NCBI GenBank assembly: GCA_964388035.1
Contig: CAYLZE010000001.1
Span: 95,325-147,833 of the forward strand
Source: an uncultured archaeon
GTDB taxonomy: Archaea > Asgardarchaeota > Lokiarchaeia > Sigyniarchaeales > SOKP01
Reading direction: 5' to 3'
Length of the DNA: 52,509 nucleotides
Each line of letters begins with the position of its first letter. Positions within the stretch are counted from its first letter, which is position 1. Made by a program: the position numbers and the translations under genes. The notes below the pieces were generated by a model. It was given only the letters and a program-made list of their open reading frames with translations. It did no database searches and was not told the DNA's origin. Positions 3,138-46,720 of this stretch are shown here, in pieces.

Positions 3138-3419
3138 ATGACTAAAAAGATTAATATAAAATTACCTATTGATTTGCTTGAATTAACTGGCCTTAGTTCT
3201 GAACGATTAGAAGAAAAAAGTCTTTTAATCTGGGTGTTAGAGTTATATTCAGAAGGTAAGATTACTCTTTTTAAAGCAGCAAATTTAGCTCACTTAAAAG
3301 TTGATAATTTTTTATCTGAATTTAAAAGGTGGCACCTAAAGCATATTGGATGCTCAGAAAATCTCCAACAAGCACAAAACGATCAAGATGTAATTCATAA
3401 CTTAATTAAAGATCAATGA
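3138..3419 (+). CDS. UPF0175-family predicted antitoxin
   Basis: LELYSEGKITLFKAANLA HTH pattern; in-frame ATG 3138 preferred over ORF-track start 3018; stop overlaps next ATG (ATGA). Confidence 0.75.
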   Translation: MTKKINIKLPIDLLELTGLSSERLEEKSLLIWVLELYSEGKITLFKAANLAHLKVDNFLSEFKRWHLKHIGCSENLQQAQNDQDVIHNLIKDQ

Positions 3420-3873
3420 TCATGATAATTCTTGATAATAGTATATATTGAGTGCCTTTTCATATCTTGAACTTTTACCTTCATTAGAAAAACTTCTTAA
3501 ATCAGCGCTTATTACAAAAGAAATGCAAAACGATTATTCGATTGGCTGGCTACAATCTATTCCTAACGGGATATAAAAATATAGGAGACAGATAATATTG
3601 ATTTAAAAAATATTCCTTTATCATTGAGTTCAGTATATTGAGTCTCATTAGGTTAGCGTTAGAACATAATATGCCTCTAACCTCAGATGATAGACCTTTA
3701 AGAAATTACGCAAAAAGACTTCAGCTCTCAATTACAGGTTCACTTGGATTATTGAAAACCCTATATCAAAAGAAAATAATTAAAACTAAGGAAAAATATA
3801 CTTATTATTTTCAGAAACTTCAAGATATCGATATATATCTGATGAACTTAGGAAATGGGCATTAGAAGATTAA
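3416..3873 (+). pseudogene. DUF3368-like PIN-domain toxin pseudogene
   Basis: MIMIILDNS(fs)ILSAFSYLELL...; C-terminal part LALEHNMPLTSDDRPLRNYAKRLQLSITGSLGLL (ORF 3638-3865); several frameshifts, some in AT dinucleotide runs (about 3442-3448 and 3831-3838). Confidence 0.8.
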
Positions 3874-4095
3874 ATATAATTCTTCCTCATATTTGACGAA
3901 TTAACCATTGTGCTACAATTACTTTGATTAACATGTTAATGATATCTCATGCTATATATATTTATTTATTAAAATAAGAGTAAATCAATTGAGGCCCACT
4001 TATAACTCGTTGTTATTACTGTGACAATCTATCCCAATATTTTTATGGATTTTAACATTATATAGAATTAATAATCAATAACCAAAGAAAAATTA

Positions 4096-4383
4096 ATGAT
4101 GTCTTCAAAAAATAAATACATAATAATGAACAATCAAGATAATTGTGCGACCACATTGGATGATCTTCCTCAAGGAGAAACACTAAATATTCGGGGAAAT
4201 ACTATTGTATTGAATCAACCCATAGCTCTGGGACATAAACTTGCCTTGGAGGATATACCCTCGGGAAAGTTAGTATACAAATATGGTCAAATCATCGGAA
4301 TTACGACAAAAGCAATCCAGAAAGGAGAGTGGATTCACATTCATAATCTAAAAAGCCATTATTTGGAGATGGTTTCCAAATGA
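4096..4383 (+). CDS. UxaA-family dehydratase small (SAF-domain) subunit, SuyA/altronate dehydratase-like
   Basis: DNCAT...GHKLALEDI...KYGQIIG...IQKGEWIHIHN SAF signature; ATGA overlap with the large subunit. Confidence 0.9.
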   Translation: MMSSKNKYIIMNNQDNCATTLDDLPQGETLNIRGNTIVLNQPIALGHKLALEDIPSGKLVYKYGQIIGITTKAIQKGEWIHIHNLKSHYLEMVSK

Positions 4384-5558
4384 CAGAAGAATTTATGGGG
4401 TATGCGCGCCCTAAAGGAATGGTGGGAATTCGAAATAAGATAGGTATAATGGCCAGCGTGTCATGTGTAGATTTTGTGGTAGAAAAGATTGCTCGAGGTG
4501 TTGAAAATTCCGTTGCTATTACCCATCCTCTTGGTTGCGGTCAATTTGGGCAAGATCTTACCAATGTTCAGCGTACCTTAGTAGGGCTTGGATCTAATCC
4601 TAATCTTTATGGCGTGCTCATCGTTGGACTTGGTTGTGAGAACTTGAAGAGCGATTATCTGGCTAAAAACATTAAGCGAACGAAAAAACCAGTAGAACAT
4701 TTTGATTTACAAGATGTCAACGGAGGGGAGCCGGTGGCTGTTGAAAAAGGAATAAAAATCGCCAAGCAGATGACCGCAGAGGCTAAGGAGTTGAAAAGAG
4801 AGCCATTTGATTTTTCTCATTTAATTTTAGGATTGGAATGTGGGGGTTCCGATTCTATTTCTGGAATAACCGCAAATCCAGCAGTAGGCGTGGTATCGGA
4901 TAAAATAGTTAAATATGGAGGCACGAGCATCCTGCCTGAATTCACGGAATGGATTGGGACGGAGCATCTTCTCATGAAAAGGGCAATAAGTGAAAAAGTG
5001 GCAAGGCAGATCGAGCTTCCTATTAAACGGCTGTTGGAACGCACCATGGAAATAGGCGTGGATTTTAGAGGTTCCCAGCCCACTCCTGGAAATATTGAAG
5101 GAGGCTTAACTACTATTGAAGAAAAATCCCTCGGAACAACCGCAAAATCGGGGAAATCTCCCATCAGTGGAGTAATTAATTATTCCCAAAAACCTAAAAG
5201 GAAAGGGCTTTGGCTAATGGTGGAACCCGGGAATGATATTGAATCAATGACGGGGCTGGCTGCAGCCGGAGCTCAAATAATAACGATGACTACAGGGAGA
5301 GGCACTCCGACAGGAAATCCAATTGCTCCGGTGATAAAGTTATGCGGTAATCCTCACACTTGCGACTGGTTAAAAGTGCATATTGATGTTGATGCAAGTA
5401 AGATTATCACGGAAAATAAATCAGTAGAAAATGTGGGTGAAATATTATGGCAAGATGTCAAAGCAACATGTAATGGGAAATTAACTAAAGCAGAGTTGTT
5501 TGGACATTATAATATTGCAATTTGGAGGCACTTAGCATTTCCATTTTCCCTGGTTTAA
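4380..5558 (+). CDS. UxaA-family dehydratase large subunit (altronate/galactarate dehydratase or sulfolactate sulfo-lyase SuyB-like)
   Basis: GIRN, HPLGC, GLGCE, LECGGSD..SG.TANP, GN..GGLTTIEEKSLG and TTGRG motifs. Confidence 0.92.
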   Translation: MTEEFMGYARPKGMVGIRNKIGIMASVSCVDFVVEKIARGVENSVAITHPLGCGQFGQDLTNVQRTLVGLGSNPNLYGVLIVGLGCENLKSDYLAKNIKRTKKPVEHFDLQDVNGGEPVAVEKGIKIAKQMTAEAKELKREPFDFSHLILGLECGGSDSISGITANPAVGVVSDKIVKYGGTSILPEFTEWIGTEHLLMKRAISEKVARQIELPIKRLLERTMEIGVDFRGSQPTPGNIEGGLTTIEEKSLGTTAKSGKSPISGVINYSQKPKRKGLWLMVEPGNDIESMTGLAAAGAQIITMTTGRGTPTGNPIAPVIKLCGNPHTCDWLKVHIDVDASKIITENKSVENVGEILWQDVKATCNGKLTKAELFGHYNIAIWRHLAFPFSLV

Positions 5559-39535: not shown

Positions 39536-40120
39536 TTGAATATCTTTCTTGTGAACAAAGTGAATCATATAGGGGATTATGGAAGTGAAGAGGAAGTAGA
39601 TAATGTTCAATGGAATTTAATAAAAATTTCTCACGTGGACGACAAAATTATAAAAAAGTTGATAACCCACATGAAATCCGAATTATCTGATAACTTTTTC
39701 ATTTCTTTCGAATCGTTAATCAACATTGGCATGAAAGCGAGAGAATTAGTATCAAAAACTTACAATGAATATTCGGATTCCACCAATTTCCGCAAGTATC
39801 TATTTCAATTTATTTTAAATTTTTACGATGATATCGTAGAATGTCCTTTAGTGTTAAGGTTATATCATCCGGATTTCATAATTCGTGCCAAAAATTTAAT
39901 GCAAATTGAAGAAAAGGGAGATATATCATATTTGAAATTCATTATTCCTTTAATGAATGATCCGGATGACAGTGTAAGATGGGCGACTATTAGAGTACTG
40001 GAATCCTTCAAACAATTTGAGGACAATCCTATAATGGTTAAAAAAATTCAACATAGAATTAATAAAGAACCTAATCCTGTTATAAAAGAAAAGTTAGAAA
40101 AAATTTTTTCTCAAAATTGA
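39536..40120 (+). CDS. HEAT-repeat-like helical protein
   Basis: LMNDPDDSVRWATIRVL and HPDFIIRA HEAT-like units; start uncertain. Confidence 0.75.
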   Translation: MNIFLVNKVNHIGDYGSEEEVDNVQWNLIKISHVDDKIIKKLITHMKSELSDNFFISFESLINIGMKARELVSKTYNEYSDSTNFRKYLFQFILNFYDDIVECPLVLRLYHPDFIIRAKNLMQIEEKGDISYLKFIIPLMNDPDDSVRWATIRVLESFKQFEDNPIMVKKIQHRINKEPNPVIKEKLEKIFSQN

Positions 40121-40137: not shown

Positions 40138-40335
40138 TCATCTTTTTCTAATATCTGCATTTGCCCTGTACATTTTGTCTTTAAATTCTTGAGATTTTTG
40201 GCGCAATATTTTCCGTCGCTCTACGATGCTAACTCGGTTTTGTTTTAAGAGCGTATCTAATTGTTCCATGTATTCTTCCACGCTTAGCTCTAAATTAAAA
40301 ACCGAGTCATAATCTACTTTATCACTCAATTTCAT
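40138..40335 (-). CDS. Small helical hypothetical protein
   Basis: 65 aa, AGGAAAGGA SD-like sequence upstream on the - strand. Confidence 0.7.
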   Translation of the reverse strand: MKLSDKVDYDSVFNLELSVEEYMEQLDTLLKQNRVSIVERRKILRQKSQEFKDKMYRANADIRKR

Positions 40336-40597
40336 GATGTTTCCTTTCCTTATTTAATCAAACTATATTTTTATATCTTATAGACTTTATATACTTGGAA
40401 TATTTATTTTTTTCTTTCTCAAAAAAAGACCTAAAAAACTATCTTAATCATTAATCTCTACTTGATAACATGTACATGATATTAAATTATTATGAAAGTA
40501 ACCACGATTAAATTAATCAAGCACCTTTCCATCTCTTACAATTATCATGGACGAGTATCCGATTTGACCGCTTGAAAATGATGGGAGATAATTTAAA

Positions 40598-41188
40598 TTA
40601 TATCTTTGCTTGAATGTTTGTATAGTCTTTTTTAACGATCTCTGATATCCCAAAACGCAATGTAATAAGTTTTGTATCAACTTTAGTAGTTTGGCAAAAT
40701 ACGGTGGGAACATTAGCTTCATGCTTGTCTAAAATATCTATAATAATTATTCGTTCTTTATTGGAATTAAAGAATATTTCATAAAGAGCACTAATTTCAA
40801 ATTCATGGATATTCTTTTTCAAGAGCTTTCTTACATAAATATCATAGCGTAAAAAAAAGGAAAAAAGAGAATCATCCACAGCTACCTCTAAATTCGGGAA
40901 TTGTGAATTTGCCAAGTGTTTTAAATATTCAAAACGAATTTTATTCGCTCGAATCCACTCAAAAGCAAAATCTAATCCTGTTTTTTCCGATTCCAATTTA
41001 TCTTCATAATATGTCAGAACACCTTTAACATCTTCAAATTGAGCCCCAATGGACTGCGTGTTATGCAGGAAATATGCAATGGAATGAATAAACTCTGGAT
41101 TCTCTAAACTATGACGAACTCGCTGAAAATAATCGTTTAATTTTTCTTTATCAATTGCAAAAGAATCTATCATTTCTCGTTCTTGCAT
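40598..41188 (-). CDS. Hypothetical protein
   Basis: 196-aa ORF, mostly helical-looking; no family recognised. Confidence 0.8.
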   Translation of the reverse strand: MQEREMIDSFAIDKEKLNDYFQRVRHSLENPEFIHSIAYFLHNTQSIGAQFEDVKGVLTYYEDKLESEKTGLDFAFEWIRANKIRFEYLKHLANSQFPNLEVAVDDSLFSFFLRYDIYVRKLLKKNIHEFEISALYEIFFNSNKERIIIIDILDKHEANVPTVFCQTTKVDTKLITLRFGISEIVKKDYTNIQAKI

Positions 41189-41314: not shown

Positions 41315-42352
41315 TCATTTAACGCTATCTAGGGTATTTTGAATATCATGGAGTGGATCTTTTTCTAATGTCCCCCAATTCACAAATGGATTTATCATGG
41401 GATTAATTTCTGCCACAGTCTGCTCAAAGCTCTTCTTTTTATCGATTATTTGGCGAAGTTTTTGTCGATAATGAATCATTTTATTCGGTTCGGAAGATAA
41501 GTTCACCTTATTGACTAGAATTACTCCATAGCTTTCTTTAACATTATCATCTATTAAATATTCTTCCAAATATATGACGATTTTATCTTCTTTACTCAAT
41601 TTTATCAATCGAATGTTGGGGCTAAGCCCAGATACGTCAAATAAAAACAAAGTTTCCTTAATTCGTTGTTCGTAATAATTTGGAAGTATGGACATGACAT
41701 AAAAGGAAGGAATACTCTTTAAAATCTCTATTCTATTAACATCCTCCGGATCACAGGTAAATAAACCCGACTCTTTTTTATCTTCGGCTATTTTTCTCTT
41801 AATTACGCCCACGCAATAATATTCTATGGGAGCTTCCCAATAAATTTTACGGGATGATCCGAGGGAATATTCAATTAAACTCAGGCCCCGTTTAAGTTCC
41901 GCTTGAAGGAAGTTTTCAAGTCGGAAATCCTCGCCCATGATCGCTTCTTTTACAACCTTTCCCTGTAAGATGCTTGGGTGTATCAATTTATCCATTTTAT
42001 CATAGATGATCTTAATATCTTCCGTATACGGAGATCCGATAAATGCAAATAAATTCGTGATCTTTCCTTGAAATTGGATGGTTGAATTTAACAAGAAAAA
42101 AGATTGCAGAAAATCTTTAACATTTCCATGCGCTTCATTAATTGATATGGAGGATTCTATTCTTTCAATCGTCCAAGAACTAGTTTCTTTCAAGGCTTTG
42201 GTCAAGAATATAGGTCCTAAATACCTCAAAGATAAAGTGCGAATCCCATCTAGGGCGGACTTGGATAAGGTTCCCGGAACTTTTATTTCCTCGAAAATCA
42301 AATTATTCTCCGTGCAAAAAAAGAGACCTAAAATGTAATTCGCTTCTTTCAT
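41315..42352 (-). CDS. Hypothetical protein (possible longin/sensor-like alpha-beta domains)
   Basis: 345-aa ORF; fold guess rests only on the hydrophobic strand/helix pattern. Confidence 0.7.
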   Translation of the reverse strand: MKEANYILGLFFCTENNLIFEEIKVPGTLSKSALDGIRTLSLRYLGPIFLTKALKETSSWTIERIESSISINEAHGNVKDFLQSFFLLNSTIQFQGKITNLFAFIGSPYTEDIKIIYDKMDKLIHPSILQGKVVKEAIMGEDFRLENFLQAELKRGLSLIEYSLGSSRKIYWEAPIEYYCVGVIKRKIAEDKKESGLFTCDPEDVNRIEILKSIPSFYVMSILPNYYEQRIKETLFLFDVSGLSPNIRLIKLSKEDKIVIYLEEYLIDDNVKESYGVILVNKVNLSSEPNKMIHYRQKLRQIIDKKKSFEQTVAEINPMINPFVNWGTLEKDPLHDIQNTLDSVK

Positions 42353-42545: not shown

Positions 42546-43385
42546 ATGATTTCCCCCAAATCTCTAACATTTAATCAAAATTCCTGTAAAAAGCCTTCTC
42601 CCCTCGAAGAATTTCTCCAAAAAACTCAAATTTTTAAGGGCGTGGAATTGAACTATGAAAGTATTAAAACGGAATTATCCGATAATTTCAAGTTAAAAGA
42701 GTTGGCTGAAATCCTACAAGTATATGATCATGAGGCCGTAAGCATTTTCTCCTTAGAAGACTTTTCCTTAAGTTCTGATGAAAACTTTAAATCAAAAATT
42801 ATTCCGCAGCTGAAGGAGATGATGGATTTTTGTTATAAATTAGAATGTGATTTAATTACAGTCCATCCTTCATCAATAGATTTGGAATTGCATGGCAGCG
42901 ATCCTCCAAAATGGAGAATTATAAAAAGAACCACGAAACGACTTCAAGCAATAGCAAAAATGGCATGGGAGGAAGATATTAATATCGGATTTGAAATGGT
43001 AAGTGATGCAAAGAGTTCAATTCAGACGATTGAAAATGCAATGGAAGTGCTGAATCCCCTGAAGTCCCAAGAGAATGTGGGATACATAATAGATTTATTT
43101 CATTTGATTAAAACACAAACTGATTTTACTTTGCTTGCCCCTATTAAGGAATTTATTTTTCTTGTTCAGATATGTGATTTCAAAAATAATGCGGAACAAA
43201 AACCGGGAGAATTAACAGAAGAAGACAGAATTCTGCCAGGTCAGGGAAATTATAATTTTAAACAGTTCTTCACCTCATTACATAAAATTCGATACAGAAA
43301 AAGAATCTCGGTAGAAGGATTCCAATGCGAAGAATGTGATGCTACTGCAATAAAGGAAGCTTATCAAGTTTTATTGAACTTTTGA
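42546..43385 (+). CDS. Sugar-phosphate isomerase/epimerase-family TIM barrel (IolI/IolE-like)
   Basis: GFE, IDLFH, VQICD, RILPGQG and SVEGF motifs. Confidence 0.82.
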   Translation: MISPKSLTFNQNSCKKPSPLEEFLQKTQIFKGVELNYESIKTELSDNFKLKELAEILQVYDHEAVSIFSLEDFSLSSDENFKSKIIPQLKEMMDFCYKLECDLITVHPSSIDLELHGSDPPKWRIIKRTTKRLQAIAKMAWEEDINIGFEMVSDAKSSIQTIENAMEVLNPLKSQENVGYIIDLFHLIKTQTDFTLLAPIKEFIFLVQICDFKNNAEQKPGELTEEDRILPGQGNYNFKQFFTSLHKIRYRKRISVEGFQCEECDATAIKEAYQVLLNF

Positions 43386-43586
43386 GAAGTAAATCTAATT
43401 AGAGTTGCTGTAATCAATTATTACATGTGTTGGTTTATCCATTTGGAGCAATTAAGGTATTTTCTTTAATGCAGATTTTAAAAATCTAAGAATTTATTTA
43501 ATAAGAATTTTAATTATTTATATAAATTAGTTTTCTTTACTATTACACGTAATATAAACTATTAACCAAAATCTATGTTGATTTGA

Positions 43587-44114
43587 ATGCCATCCTCTTA
43601 TGATTATACATTCAAGTTTCTTTTGCTAGGAGATGCCTCAGTGGGCAAAACTTCCTTCACAAAACGGTATTGTTATAATATTTTCAACCCATCCGAACGC
43701 TTAACTATAGGAGTTGATTTTCATGTCAAGACCATTGATTTACGAGGCAAGAAGATAAAACTCCAAATTTGGGACATCGGAGGCGAGGCCAGGTTCCGAT
43801 TTCTACTTCCAACTTACTGTTTGGGTGCAAATGGCGCATTTTTGTTGTATGATATATCACGTTCCTCTACTTTAGAAAACATACAGGAGTGGATTTCTAT
43901 TGTTAGACAAAAAGCAGGACCGATTCCCATCATGCTTCTTGGTTCTAAAACCGATTTAGCACCTTCCCAAAGAAAAATAACTTCTGAATTTGGACTTCAA
44001 ATCGCACAGAAAAATGATATTGCAGCTTTTGCAGAAATTAGCTCAAAAAATAACGTGAATATTGATGAAACCTTTGACACGCTTACCAAGCTAACCTTGG
44101 AAAAAATGGAATAG
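43587..44114 (+). CDS. Rab-like small GTPase (Ras superfamily)
   Basis: G1 GDASVGKT, G2/RabF1 TIGVDF, RabF2 KLQIW, G3 DIGGE, RabF4-like YCLGA, G4 SKTD, G5 SSK. Confidence 0.95.
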   Translation: MPSSYDYTFKFLLLGDASVGKTSFTKRYCYNIFNPSERLTIGVDFHVKTIDLRGKKIKLQIWDIGGEARFRFLLPTYCLGANGAFLLYDISRSSTLENIQEWISIVRQKAGPIPIMLLGSKTDLAPSQRKITSEFGLQIAQKNDIAAFAEISSKNNVNIDETFDTLTKLTLEKME

Positions 44115-44119
44115 TTGAG

Positions 44120-45094
44120 GTGATCAATGTGGAAGAAGGAGAATTCTTAATTCTTAGCCAATTATTTGATTCAATTGGGATAGTAGAAAAAGGAATTGAG
44201 AGGATTTATGATTATCTTTTAAGAAATAAAAAAATTGAAAACCTCAATGAAGTGTGCGAACAAAATGGACTTTCCTTAAAACGAGGATACAAGATATGTT
44301 CGGTATTAAATGATCTCAATCTAGTTCAAATCTATGACCGACCCATGAAAATCTTCCTTCAGACGGAAGTCGTTGCCCGTTGGCAAGAATTAATTAACCT
44401 TCGCATCGAAAAACTTCAAAAAGAATTTCAAGAGCAGAAAGAAAAATGTGAATTAAACCTAGAGGAATTTTTAAAAAACTATGATTTAAAGGAAAAGGAG
44501 ATACAAGAGCCCGTAGAATTTTATGGGTTGAATATTCCCAATTTTTCGGAGATTTTAAGAAATTACAAAGTCGCGAGTTCTGAATGTCGCATAGCAATTG
44601 GAATCCATTATGAGAATCCTTTAATATCCTTGATTAAAAAAGAACAAAAAGATGATATTCAAAAGCTATTAAAAAACGAAATCCTTCCCGAAATTCTATC
44701 TGTGGAACCCAATTTAAGGAAGTTAAATGTAATCCTCGTATTGAATGAAGAGCTATTTATAGAATTGATTAATAGCAGTGAATATGCCTTATTAAATGAA
44801 CTCATCAATTCCATGGATTTAAAAGTTAATAAAATCGATGCAAGGATCACGAATGTAAATTTCAGCAATTTTAGTCTAACAGATGACGAGCTTATCCAGC
44901 CAAGCTTCGATCCCACGAACCAACTAATCGGTTGTTATATTTCAAGAAATAAGAATATTTATCAAATCTTTTCGGATAAATTTAACGAGATAAGTAAAAA
45001 TGGCATTTCACTGAAGGATTTTGTAAAACAGAATAAATCTATTCCCTTGGATTCCATTTCAGAGAAGACTTTCTTAACCTTAAGCTTATTGTAA
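44120..45094 (+). CDS. TrmB-like winged-HTH transcriptional regulator
   Basis: N-terminal RIYDYLL...LNEVCEQNGLSLKRGYKICSVLNDLNLV wHTH, then a coiled coil and an alpha/beta domain; GAGGTGA SD suggests a GTG 44129 start. Confidence 0.65.
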   Translation: MINVEEGEFLILSQLFDSIGIVEKGIERIYDYLLRNKKIENLNEVCEQNGLSLKRGYKICSVLNDLNLVQIYDRPMKIFLQTEVVARWQELINLRIEKLQKEFQEQKEKCELNLEEFLKNYDLKEKEIQEPVEFYGLNIPNFSEILRNYKVASSECRIAIGIHYENPLISLIKKEQKDDIQKLLKNEILPEILSVEPNLRKLNVILVLNEELFIELINSSEYALLNELINSMDLKVNKIDARITNVNFSNFSLTDDELIQPSFDPTNQLIGCYISRNKNIYQIFSDKFNEISKNGISLKDFVKQNKSIPLDSISEKTFLTLSLL

Positions 45095-45178: not shown

Positions 45179-46720
45179 TTATTTATTATTATTAAGTTCT
45201 TTTTTAAACTGCATGGCCTTTCTGAACTTCTTTAGCTGCTCTCGGGGTGTAACCGTAGGTCGTTCATAACGTTTTAGTTTGGATTTAATTCCAAAAAGAT
45301 ATTTGGCAATATCCTTCAGCTTTTCAGTATCGTAGCGCATCATCATGGTAATGGTTTCCATTTGGGGGCTACCCCCACCATGAAGGCCTGCTACCTGCAT
45401 TAGGCCCGCTAGTTCCGAGACAGCCAGCGCTTCAATACCCTTGAAGCATTTATACACGTTCTCTGGCTTGACCCTCGGGTTGCGCTGCATGTATTTCATG
45501 GCAAGTTCTCCGACTTCTTCAGAAAAAAAGGAACCCTCTAATGGAAGAGTAGCGATAAGGCCACCGGATAAATCGGCAAGCAATTTATATTCTTCATAAA
45601 TCATCTCTCCAGCAAGCCTCCTTCCTGCATTGGTTAATATTTCATCCGGTACTTGAGTGCCGGAAGGGGCTTTTTCAGAATGCTTAGCGCTGGACTCTCC
45701 GGCTGCAAATACTAATTCTGCGGTGCCAATAATGTGAGAAATTTTATCTTGCGCATGAGAAGCCTTTTCAATTCCATTGTATTCTGCAACTAAAGCTGCT
45801 GAACTAGCTATTACCTCAGAAACTGCAGGTTTACATCCTGTATAACTATGGCGATGATAATGTGCAAACATGAGGGCAAGGAATCCTGCATATGCGGTCT
45901 GTCGGGGGTCTCCATTTCCATTTAAGAAAACTCTTTCATTTGGGACAAAAACATCATCAAAAATAATAAAAGTCTCCGCATCCCCCAAATTCATTGTGGG
46001 AATGTCGTAATGCTCGCTTTTATGTTGATATGCCGGGCGAGTTAATAACTTTACTCCATCCCAATCACACGGCAAAGCGAAAGCCACGGCATAATCATTA
46101 TCTTCAGGTCCCATATATCGACAAGGGACAACAATCATCTCATCGGCATAAGGCGTGTTAGTAATATTGCACTTGGCGCCCCGTACGATTATCCCATCCT
46201 CACGAGTTTCCACTACCCTTAAATACATGTCGGGATCGGCTTGTTCGTGAGGTCTTTTCAACCTATCTCCCTTGACATCTGTTTGAGCGCAACTAGCTAC
46301 TAAATCATTTTCCTGAAAATACTCCATGTACTTTTTAAATCTTTGATAATAATCCGTTCCCAATGCCTCGTCCATTTCATATGTGATGACAGATAATCCA
46401 TTCAATGCATCAATTCCCATGCACCTTTGTATGCATCCTCCCACGCGATGACAGAGTAAGCGCGTCATGCGTTGTTTCTTTAACAGATCATCTTCACTCT
46501 GATGAATGTGACAAAATCTATTTATTTTTTTTCCAGTTAGGTGAGAAGTAGCCGTGCATACATCTTCATAGTCCGGATCTTGGGCTCTATCAAATGTCTC
46601 TCTAATGATATACATGCCTCCCGCAAGTCTAGGATCATCTCTGCCCACTTTTTCATCACCGATATACACGTTAGGTTTCATCTTATATAATTTGTCTAGA
46701 TATTCCTGATAAGTTCTCAT
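45179..46720 (-). CDS. abfD: 4-hydroxybutyryl-CoA dehydratase (HpaB/AbfD family)
   Basis: CIQRCMGID, QTDVKGDR, HRHSYTGCK (3 Cys + His Fe-S ligands) and HGGGS motifs. Confidence 0.88.
   Translation of the reverse strand: MRTYQEYLDKLYKMKPNVYIGDEKVGRDDPRLAGGMYIIRETFDRAQDPDYEDVCTATSHLTGKKINRFCHIHQSEDDLLKKQRMTRLLCHRVGGCIQRCMGIDALNGLSVITYEMDEALGTDYYQRFKKYMEYFQENDLVASCAQTDVKGDRLKRPHEQADPDMYLRVVETREDGIIVRGAKCNITNTPYADEMIVVPCRYMGPEDNDYAVAFALPCDWDGVKLLTRPAYQHKSEHYDIPTMNLGDAETFIIFDDVFVPNERVFLNGNGDPRQTAYAGFLALMFAHYHRHSYTGCKPAVSEVIASSAALVAEYNGIEKASHAQDKISHIIGTAELVFAAGESSAKHSEKAPSGTQVPDEILTNAGRRLAGEMIYEEYKLLADLSGGLIATLPLEGSFFSEEVGELAMKYMQRNPRVKPENVYKCFKGIEALAVSELAGLMQVAGLHGGGSPQMETITMMMRYDTEKLKDIAKYLFGIKSKLKRYERPTVTPREQLKKFRKAMQFKKELNNNK

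Follow-up and report, generated by a model that had tools for sequence, protein, structure and literature searches.

A Rab-like GTPase gene and the gene of a probable TrmB-fold regulator form a conserved, tightly coupled pair in Lokiarchaeia-type Asgard archaea

We analysed a two-gene unit in a stretch of Asgard DNA of 52,509 nucleotides (nt), which we call the window; all positions below are counted from its first letter unless a contig label is given. The first gene encodes a small GTPase of the Rab type, and the second, directly downstream on the same strand, encodes a protein that we refer to as the partner. Judged from the genes and their spacing in related genomes, the two form an order-specific, translationally coupled operon in Lokiarchaeia-type Asgard archaea, and structural modelling indicates that the partner is probably a very divergent member of the TrmB/TrmBL2 family of regulators. 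The reading that we favour, to which we assign a probability of roughly 0.4, is that the TrmB-fold partner senses which nucleotide state the GTPase is in and thereby controls DNA binding. An earlier, sequence-only reading of this DNA had suggested a GTPase switch wired to nutrient-dependent transcription; the pairing on which that suggestion was built has held up well, while the link to nutrients has not. The unit and the signals associated with it are as follows.

43587-44114, plus strand: Rab-like GTPase gene, 175 amino acids, from the list of open reading frames (ORFs)
44120-45094, plus strand: partner ORF as mechanically called, 324 amino acids, from the same list
44129-45094, plus strand: partner gene from its likely start, GTG 44129, 321 amino acids, from orthologue N-termini
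44117-44125, plus strand: near-perfect Shine-Dalgarno site GAGGTGATC in the likely 14-nt spacer, ending 3-5 nt before the partner start
43514-43530, plus strand: TATA-like box TTATTTATATAAATTAG, which lies some 60 nt ahead of the GTPase ATG and may be the promoter of both genes

Both ORFs are present as the sequence-only reading described them, but the gap of 5 nt that it reported between them is probably too short. In an alignment of 30 orthologues, the N-termini of the form MEDxEF... match GTG 44129, from which the protein of the window reads MEEGEF..., and not GTG 44120, which sits within the Shine-Dalgarno-like site. A partner that begins at GTG 44129 has 321 amino acids, and the orthologues have 320-321. 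Translation therefore most likely starts at 44129 rather than at 44120, and because the orthologue N-termini line up with that codon, the gap between the two genes is most likely 14 nt. The GTPase gene ends in TAG (44112-44114), and the motif GAGGTGA that had been noticed at the junction lies at 44117-44123, between this stop codon and the partner start. It is no accident of the window, as GGTGA is found no more than 20 nt from the partner start in 70 of 77 related loci. GAGGTGATC is complementary to the usual archaeal 16S 3' tail.

The DNA upstream of the GTPase gene is also conserved in part. The TATA-like box TTATTTATATAAATTAG aligns with a conserved block, TATAATAATATAAA, that most of 45 related loci share ahead of their GTPase gene, and it may serve as the promoter of the GTPase-partner unit. 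The region 43387-43586 as a whole shares several blocks with most of these loci in an alignment of the 45 upstream regions: two TATA-like boxes about 45 nt apart, a (GAA)ATTCATTAAAGTAATAA-like element between them, and a TTTACCTAATTAC-like sequence near -30. We regard 43387-43586 as a candidate operator region.

The strongest evidence that the two genes belong together is their behaviour in other genomes. With each species represented by one genome, a scan turned up 104 loci that encode a relative of the partner, and 80 of these were fetched for neighbourhood comparison. In 78 of the 80, the GTPase gene (70-82% identical) immediately precedes the partner gene on the same strand; at the remaining two, the contig is cut within 80 nt of the partner start. 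The spacer measures 4 nt in 50 loci, and almost every other locus has one of 1-19 nt. In 54 of 77 loci the stop codon of the GTPase gene, TGA, is itself the end of the sequence AGGTGA, and is followed by 4 nt and the ATG of the partner. The synteny check proposed with the sequence-only reading thus came out in favour of the pair, which is strictly conserved and tightly coupled in relatives, and since it is conserved, the proposal cannot be refuted on the ground of non-conservation.

To describe the distribution of the partner family we used a sample of 301 genomes from the phylum. The family is present in 60 of the 68 genomes of the window's own family and in all seven genomes of a second family of the same order, and it was not found in the 225 sampled genomes of 28 other families. 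In all five of the loci fetched from the second family, a GTPase gene (46-53% identical) again stands immediately before the partner gene (30-38% identical); they include the closed genome of Ca. Harpocratesius repetitus, in which the pair (MCF2140688.1 and MCF2140689.1) is annotated as 'GTP-binding protein' and 'hypothetical protein'. Three of the four informative distant metagenomic relatives are paired as well, those three at 32-36% identity. One metagenomic contig, L082, carries two tandem copies of the partner family (858-1826 and 3401-4384, 35% and 33% identical to the protein of the window); the 857 nt that precede the first copy contain no GTPase gene. The partner is single-copy in the genome of the window, and its family is narrow: clustering at 90% leaves 484 proteins, each of them either labelled Asgard or unnamed, and there are only 47 clusters at 50% identity among 1.84 billion representatives.

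The assignment of the first gene to the Rab-like GTPases, already made from the sequence, is borne out by profile searches. The protein matches Pfam Ras (PF00071) over residues 10-169 with 145.4 bits against a cut-off of 21.6 (E 1.5e-42), and its best solved relatives, found with a profile of 27 orthologues, are Rab3A, Rab8A, Rab10, Sec4, Rab11 and Rab35, at E values of about 1e-43. The G1 motif (GDASVGKT, 15-22), the switch-I threonine (T40) and the G5 motif (SSK, 152-154) are canonical, and all three are invariant or nearly so in the 27 orthologues. The G3 motif reads WDIGGEARF, and thus departs from DxxGQ by a Glu for the catalytic Gln, aligned to the switch-II Gln of Rab8A; this Glu is invariant among the same orthologues. 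Ras Q61E has been reported to hydrolyse GTP faster than the wild type, so a Glu at this position need not mean an inactive GTPase. The G4 motif is SKTD, in which Ser takes the place of the Asn of NKxD while the Lys and the Asp are retained; its first residue is Ser or Ala in orthologues of the first family and Asn in the Harpocratesius orthologue.

Motifs resembling RabF1-F5 stand at the expected places in the GTPase (IGVDF, KLQIWD, RFRF (RFR), YCLGA and LLYDI, of which F3 and F4 are partial only), where the motif definitions are the usual ones and those of PMC4915359. The protein ends in ...LTLEKME, and its tail contains no Cys, and hence no prenylatable Cys motif of the kind found in eukaryotic Rabs; we take the GTPase to be soluble. 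Archaeal Rab-like proteins without a C-terminal Cys have been described (Surkont and Pereira-Leal 2016, PMC4915359). Within the genome of the window we found 69 Ras-family matches, 47 of them alignable, and 13 of the 47 carry Glu where the Gln would stand, in most cases alongside a G4 motif that lacks the Asn. These Glu-type paralogues read WDF[GA]GE in place of DxxGQ and mostly [STG]KxD in place of NKxD; examples are C18:47478-47999, C30:7587-8084 and C90:8513-9010. On these aligned motifs, the Glu-for-Gln exchange is a subfamily trait and not special to this GTPase gene. Among the 13 Glu-type paralogues, only this GTPase has a tightly coupled downstream gene.

For the partner we built an AlphaFold2 model on the alignment of the family, with a mean predicted local distance difference test (pLDDT) of 84. 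It contains the following parts, for which residue numbers follow the 324-amino-acid reading.

44153-44359, plus strand: winged helix-turn-helix domain with four helices, residues 12-80, from the secondary structure of the model
44369-44479, plus strand: long helix of 37 residues, residues 84-120, from the model; counterpart of the coiled-coil dimerisation helix of TrmB/TrmBL2
44516-45091, plus strand: C-terminal alpha/beta domain, PLD-like, without the HKD motif, residues 133-324, from the model and VIA-align

Two structural searches with this model gave TrmBL2 as the best whole-length match. Foldseek returned TrmBL2 (5bpd) first, with an E value of 2.6e-11 over about 290 columns, then TrmB (3qph, E 1e-7), and after these PLD-fold proteins such as Nuc, Zucchini, FAM83 and PLD3/4, which match the C-terminal domain only. 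VIA-align gave Z 11.6 for TrmBL2, with 237 residues aligned (residues 9-296 of the model), and Z 9.9 for TrmB 3qph, and the TrmB-family entries alone span both domains of the partner. The winged helix matched archaeal winged helix-turn-helix regulators at Z 10-11.5 and TFE/TFIIE at Z 8-9. The C-terminal domain matched NucT at Z 12.0, Nuc at Z 11.4 and FAM83B at Z 11.4, with Nuc, NucT and Zucchini spanning Z 10-12, and the N-subdomain of the TrmB sugar domain (2f5t residues 110-246) at Z 9.9. The long helix, residues 84-120, is covered by the whole-length alignments to both TrmBL2 and TrmB, and the partner may dimerise through it. Because the match to 2f5t stops at residue 246 and the model holds only helices after residue 293, the beta-barrel subdomain of TrmB is missing; in keeping with this, PF11495, which represents the beta-barrel part of the TrmB effector domain, has no match in the partner.

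Searches at the level of sequence were less informative. Scans of the partner against Pfam and NCBIfam gave sub-threshold noise only (DUF4250, DUF7342 and QnrD), and when the partner alignment was used as a profile against PDB sequences, no hit was significant; the closest was Legionella lpg1496, over 30 residues and at E 0.12. By language-model features, the partner lies beside clusters that all carry PF01978, the Pfam TrmB family, with scores of 0.90-0.91. Taking the structural and feature-based results together, we assign the partner to the TrmB/TrmBL2 fold and regard it as probably a very divergent member of that family.

Conservation within the family is highest in two of these parts. The winged helix is the most conserved part of the partner, with a mean column conservation of 0.87 over 78 sequences; it contains an invariant GIIEKGIE loop and five invariant basic residues, K54, R55 and K58 in the third helix (53-65) and R74 and K77 in the wing. 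Judged from these basic residues, the partner may bind DNA as a dimer. The core of the C-terminal domain (residues 236-296) has a conservation of 0.80 and includes the motif NFSNFSLTD-ELIQPSFDP-...-LIGxYISRN at residues 246-277. We considered an HKD active site in this domain and rejected it, as the orthologue alignment shows no invariant His or Lys there; for example, a column in which many orthologues have His is occupied by Arg, Lys, Trp or Tyr in others. The HKD site of the PLD fold is therefore gone, and, as far as the alignment can tell, the PLD-like sensor domain is catalytically dead. Most orthologues end in L-C-[VIL]-[ML], with the Cys third-last, and the partner and its closest relatives end in LSLL (45083-45091); the more common terminus is not a canonical CaaX box.

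We then compared the genes that surround the pair, of which the following are discussed here.

42546-43385, plus strand: xylose-isomerase-like TIM barrel gene, Pfam E 9e-26
45179-46720, minus strand: HpaB / 4-hydroxybutyryl-CoA-dehydratase-type (AbfD-like) gene, Pfam HpaB_N E 3.5e-94
39536-40120, plus strand: HEAT-like gene, 194 amino acids
41315-42352 and 40598-41188, minus strand: divergent two-gene unit, in 21-22 of the 80 loci

The sugar-isomerase-fold gene that had been noted upstream on the same strand is real, and corresponds to the TIM-barrel gene, which is separated from the GTPase gene by an AT-rich spacer of 201 nt. It had been part of the basis for proposing a link to nutrients. 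However, the TIM-barrel gene is found in just 14 of the 80 related loci, which leaves the nutrient link unsupported, and we rejected a sugar or nutrient context as a conserved feature of the pair. No sugar-transport or glycolytic genes are conserved beside the partner in the 80 loci, and in the partner itself, with the beta-barrel half of the TrmB effector missing, no ligand site can be assigned.

The AbfD-like gene is convergent on the partner gene in 60 of the 80 loci, at about 82% identity in general and about 73% in some, which are perhaps a paralogue; it is absent from the five fetched loci of the second family. In 65 of the 80 loci, a homologue of the HEAT-like gene precedes the GTPase gene, in most cases on the same strand, with no gene between them and at a distance of about 220 nt. 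In the window, three genes are inserted between the HEAT-like gene and the GTPase gene, and a HEAT_2 gene is also found near a distant pair (L085). Across the 80 loci, the GTPase-partner pair is the sole invariant element of the neighbourhood.

The first gene of the divergent unit, ORF345 (41315-42352), encodes 345 amino acids without a Pfam match. AlphaFold modelled residues 176-345 well, but the N-terminal half of the protein reached a pLDDT of 30-50 only. Foldseek found no match to the model, and VIA-align of residues 176-320 against 48,161 chains returned almost only longin-domain proteins, all as weak matches: Sec22 (Z 6.3), VAMP7 (6.2) and DENND1A (5.9), followed by synbindin, Nprl2, Lst4, Mon1-Ccz1 and a Lokiarchaeal roadblock-longin protein. 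The ORF345 family occurs in 35 of the 68 genomes of the window's family and in none of the seven of the sister family. This genome has three paralogues, one of which, C2:37815-38849, lies about 1 kb from a GTPase gene (C2:39853-40335). Downstream of ORF345 is an ORF of 196 amino acids (40598-41188) whose orthologues have about 344 in most related loci. The short form was seen in the window and its closest relative (L001) only, and the gene may be truncated or split here, in the region 40138-40597.

On another contig of the same genome, C173, the gene of a canonical PF01978 TrmB protein of 282 amino acids (L095:1456-2304) stands 216 nt ahead of that of a small GTPase (L095:2521-3078). This GTPase has the canonical motifs DIGGQ and NKTD, and it is not tightly coupled to the TrmB gene.

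From the gene order, the coupling, the conservation, the folds and the motif states that we observed, we infer a scheme that goes beyond them on four points, namely contact between the two proteins, binding of the partner to DNA, the way in which control runs, and its targets. The GTPase and the partner would be made in matched amounts and would form a complex, in which the nucleotide state of the GTPase would replace the small-molecule effector of classical TrmB regulators. The GTPase would act on the conserved C-terminal domain of the partner, or on the invariant GIIEKGIE loop of its winged helix. DNA binding by the dimeric winged helix would then change with the state of the GTPase, and with it the transcription of a regulon that probably includes the operon's own promoter. 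A more specific form of this scheme, which we put forward only tentatively, is that the pseudo-PLD domain of the partner is bound by the GTPase when the latter is in one of its nucleotide states, and that this contact switches DNA binding by the partner.

A prediction of the complex of the partner, GTP, Mg and the GTPase, with alignments for both proteins, gave scores of 0.20 and 0.09, against a mark of 0.32, and counts neither for nor against this scheme. Several results do weigh against it. No GTPase-partner fusion was found among longer proteins or in the 47 representative clusters. The sequence-only reading had called the partner TrmB-like, which stands at the level of the fold, through its TrmB/TrmBL2 architecture, but not at that of the Pfam family: the partner has no PF01978 match at E <= 0.1, it is absent from the 37 PF01978 matches of its genome, and an hhalign comparison with eight canonical TrmB paralogues was weak (E 0.005, probability 7%), albeit with its winged helix in register. 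Taken as a whole, the partner is acidic (net charge -11), and its winged helix comes to about +1 only.

Despite the conserved blocks, no operator was defined in the 45 aligned upstream regions, and in the AT-rich DNA of related genomes regulatory conservation could not be told from relatedness. The pairwise distances of the GTPase and the partner correlate at r 0.87 over 52 loci, compared with r 0.41-0.46 for either protein and the AbfD-like neighbour (partial r 0.84 for GTPase and partner), but this lends weak support, since shared descent alone could produce an r of 0.87, and AbfD may be a poor proxy for the species. Lastly, a regulator that is encoded in the operon it controls needs no contact with the GTPase.

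Among the alternatives, we rank highest a plain autoregulated operon, in which the partner senses a small ligand through its PLD-like domain and controls its own operon, and the two proteins never touch. Regulators are often co-transcribed with the genes they control, and such an operon would account for the TrmB/TrmBL2 fold and conserved winged helix of the partner, for the conserved sequence blocks upstream of the GTPase gene, and for the canonical TrmB gene that adjoins another GTPase gene in this genome without tight coupling. Even so, we consider it rather unlikely. A coupling in which the stop codon lies in the Shine-Dalgarno site and the spacer is 4 nt, kept throughout the order, is more typical of subunits made in a fixed ratio, as is the very tight shared history of the pair, and no ligand site can be named in a protein from which the sugar-binding beta-barrel subdomain of TrmB is missing.

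Alternatively, the partner is not a transcription factor at all, but a dedicated GTPase-activating protein (GAP), guanine nucleotide exchange factor (GEF), scaffold, effector or localisation factor, with a winged helix that serves for protein contacts; it might, for example, supply in trans what a GTPase with Glu for Gln and Ser for Asn lacks. Pseudo-PLD domains of the FAM83 DUF1669 kind serve as protein-binding modules, and TFE/TFIIE show that winged helices, too, can make contact with proteins, so that the FAM83-type match (Z 11.4) and the TFE/TFIIE matches (Z 8-9) can both be read in this way, along with the strict coupling of the pair, the non-canonical G3 (DIGGE) and G4 (SKTD) of the GTPase, and the acidic character of a partner whose winged helix is near-neutral. 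However, the twelve other Glu-type paralogues of the same genome are without such a partner, so the variant motifs alone do not call for one. The invariant basic residues fall exactly on the helix and the wing that contact DNA in this fold, and the nearest structural and feature-based relatives of the partner are all DNA-binding regulators. We regard a purely protein-binding role as unlikely; if the partner were a GAP or a GEF, it would represent a new regulator fold for Rab-like GTPases.

A third possibility, which we judge improbable, is that the partner is a chromatin protein like TrmBL2, one that coats DNA non-specifically, and that the GTPase modulates the formation or removal of its filaments. 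TrmBL2 is the best whole-length structural match, and the partner has its short architecture without the beta-barrel subdomain, but identity to TrmBL2 is just 13-17%, and an acidic, single-copy protein with a near-neutral winged helix, encoded in an operon with a signalling GTPase and limited to one order, fits such a role less well. Finally, there is a very slim chance that the genes are merely neighbours by descent, adjacent in close relatives without a functional link, as might be argued from the facts that every genome with the pair belongs to one order and that the convergent AbfD-like gene is likewise kept in 60 of 80 loci; yet the upstream side has undergone repeated rearrangement (some loci only have the HEAT gene, and the same is true of the ORF345 pair and of the TIM-barrel gene), the AbfD gene is missing in the second family, and the pair stays intact throughout, even where partner identity falls to 30%, with the overlap of Shine-Dalgarno site and stop codon conserved.

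The pair is of interest because Asgard archaea carry dozens of eukaryote-like small GTPases, of which, to our knowledge, almost none has an assigned partner. Here is a rare candidate that can be tested: it is joined to its GTPase without a break and by translational coupling across an order, and its structure places it in a family of DNA-binding regulators. We know of no direct GTPase-to-DNA signalling logic described for prokaryotes. If the GTPase does control the DNA binding of the partner, a Ras-superfamily switch in Lokiarchaeia would be wired to transcription and not to membranes. In that case, some pre-eukaryotic switches of the Ras superfamily would have served gene regulation rather than membrane traffic, which bears on how GTPase signalling was recruited during eukaryogenesis.

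Full-text searches of the literature found no paper linking Asgard GTPases with TrmB-type proteins and none describing the pair; both kinds of protein are known separately, and their fixed pairing is undescribed. Among known systems, the partner most resembles TrmBL2, a chromatin protein and global repressor of Thermococcales (PDB 5bpd, 5box, 5bqt and 5bpi), with which it shares an architecture of three parts, where a winged helix at the N-terminus is followed by a long coiled-coil helix and a single PLD-like alpha/beta domain, without a beta-barrel. Unlike TrmBL2, it falls below the Pfam TrmB model, is acidic, is confined to one Asgard order and is always coupled to a GTPase gene; we know of no such coupling for TrmBL2. 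The sugar sensors TrmB and TrmBL1 of Pyrococcus and Thermococcus (3qph and 2f5t) have in common with the partner the winged helix, the coiled coil and a PLD-like first effector subdomain, but the partner is without their C-terminal beta-barrel subdomain, and its proposed input is a GTPase and not a sugar.

The GTPase has the Ras fold and the motifs G1-G5 in common with the archaeal Rab-like proteins of Lokiarchaeota and Thorarchaeota (PMC4915359; Thor-Rab, PMC10933270) and with eukaryotic Rab3, Rab8 and Sec4. It differs from those Rabs in its switch-II Glu, its G4 Ser and its fixed operon partner. According to Tran et al. (2024, PMC10933270), the GTPase genes of MK-D1 as a rule do not share operons with genes for roadblock, longin or TRAPPC3 proteins, and it is hard to tell from the layout of a genome which regulator belongs to which GTPase. 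The arrangement seen here, a small GTPase encoded beside a dedicated protein partner, is that of the MglA-MglB and Rag-Ragulator pairs, but the partner in the present case is a winged-helix/PLD-like protein of a DNA-binding family and not a roadblock/longin protein.

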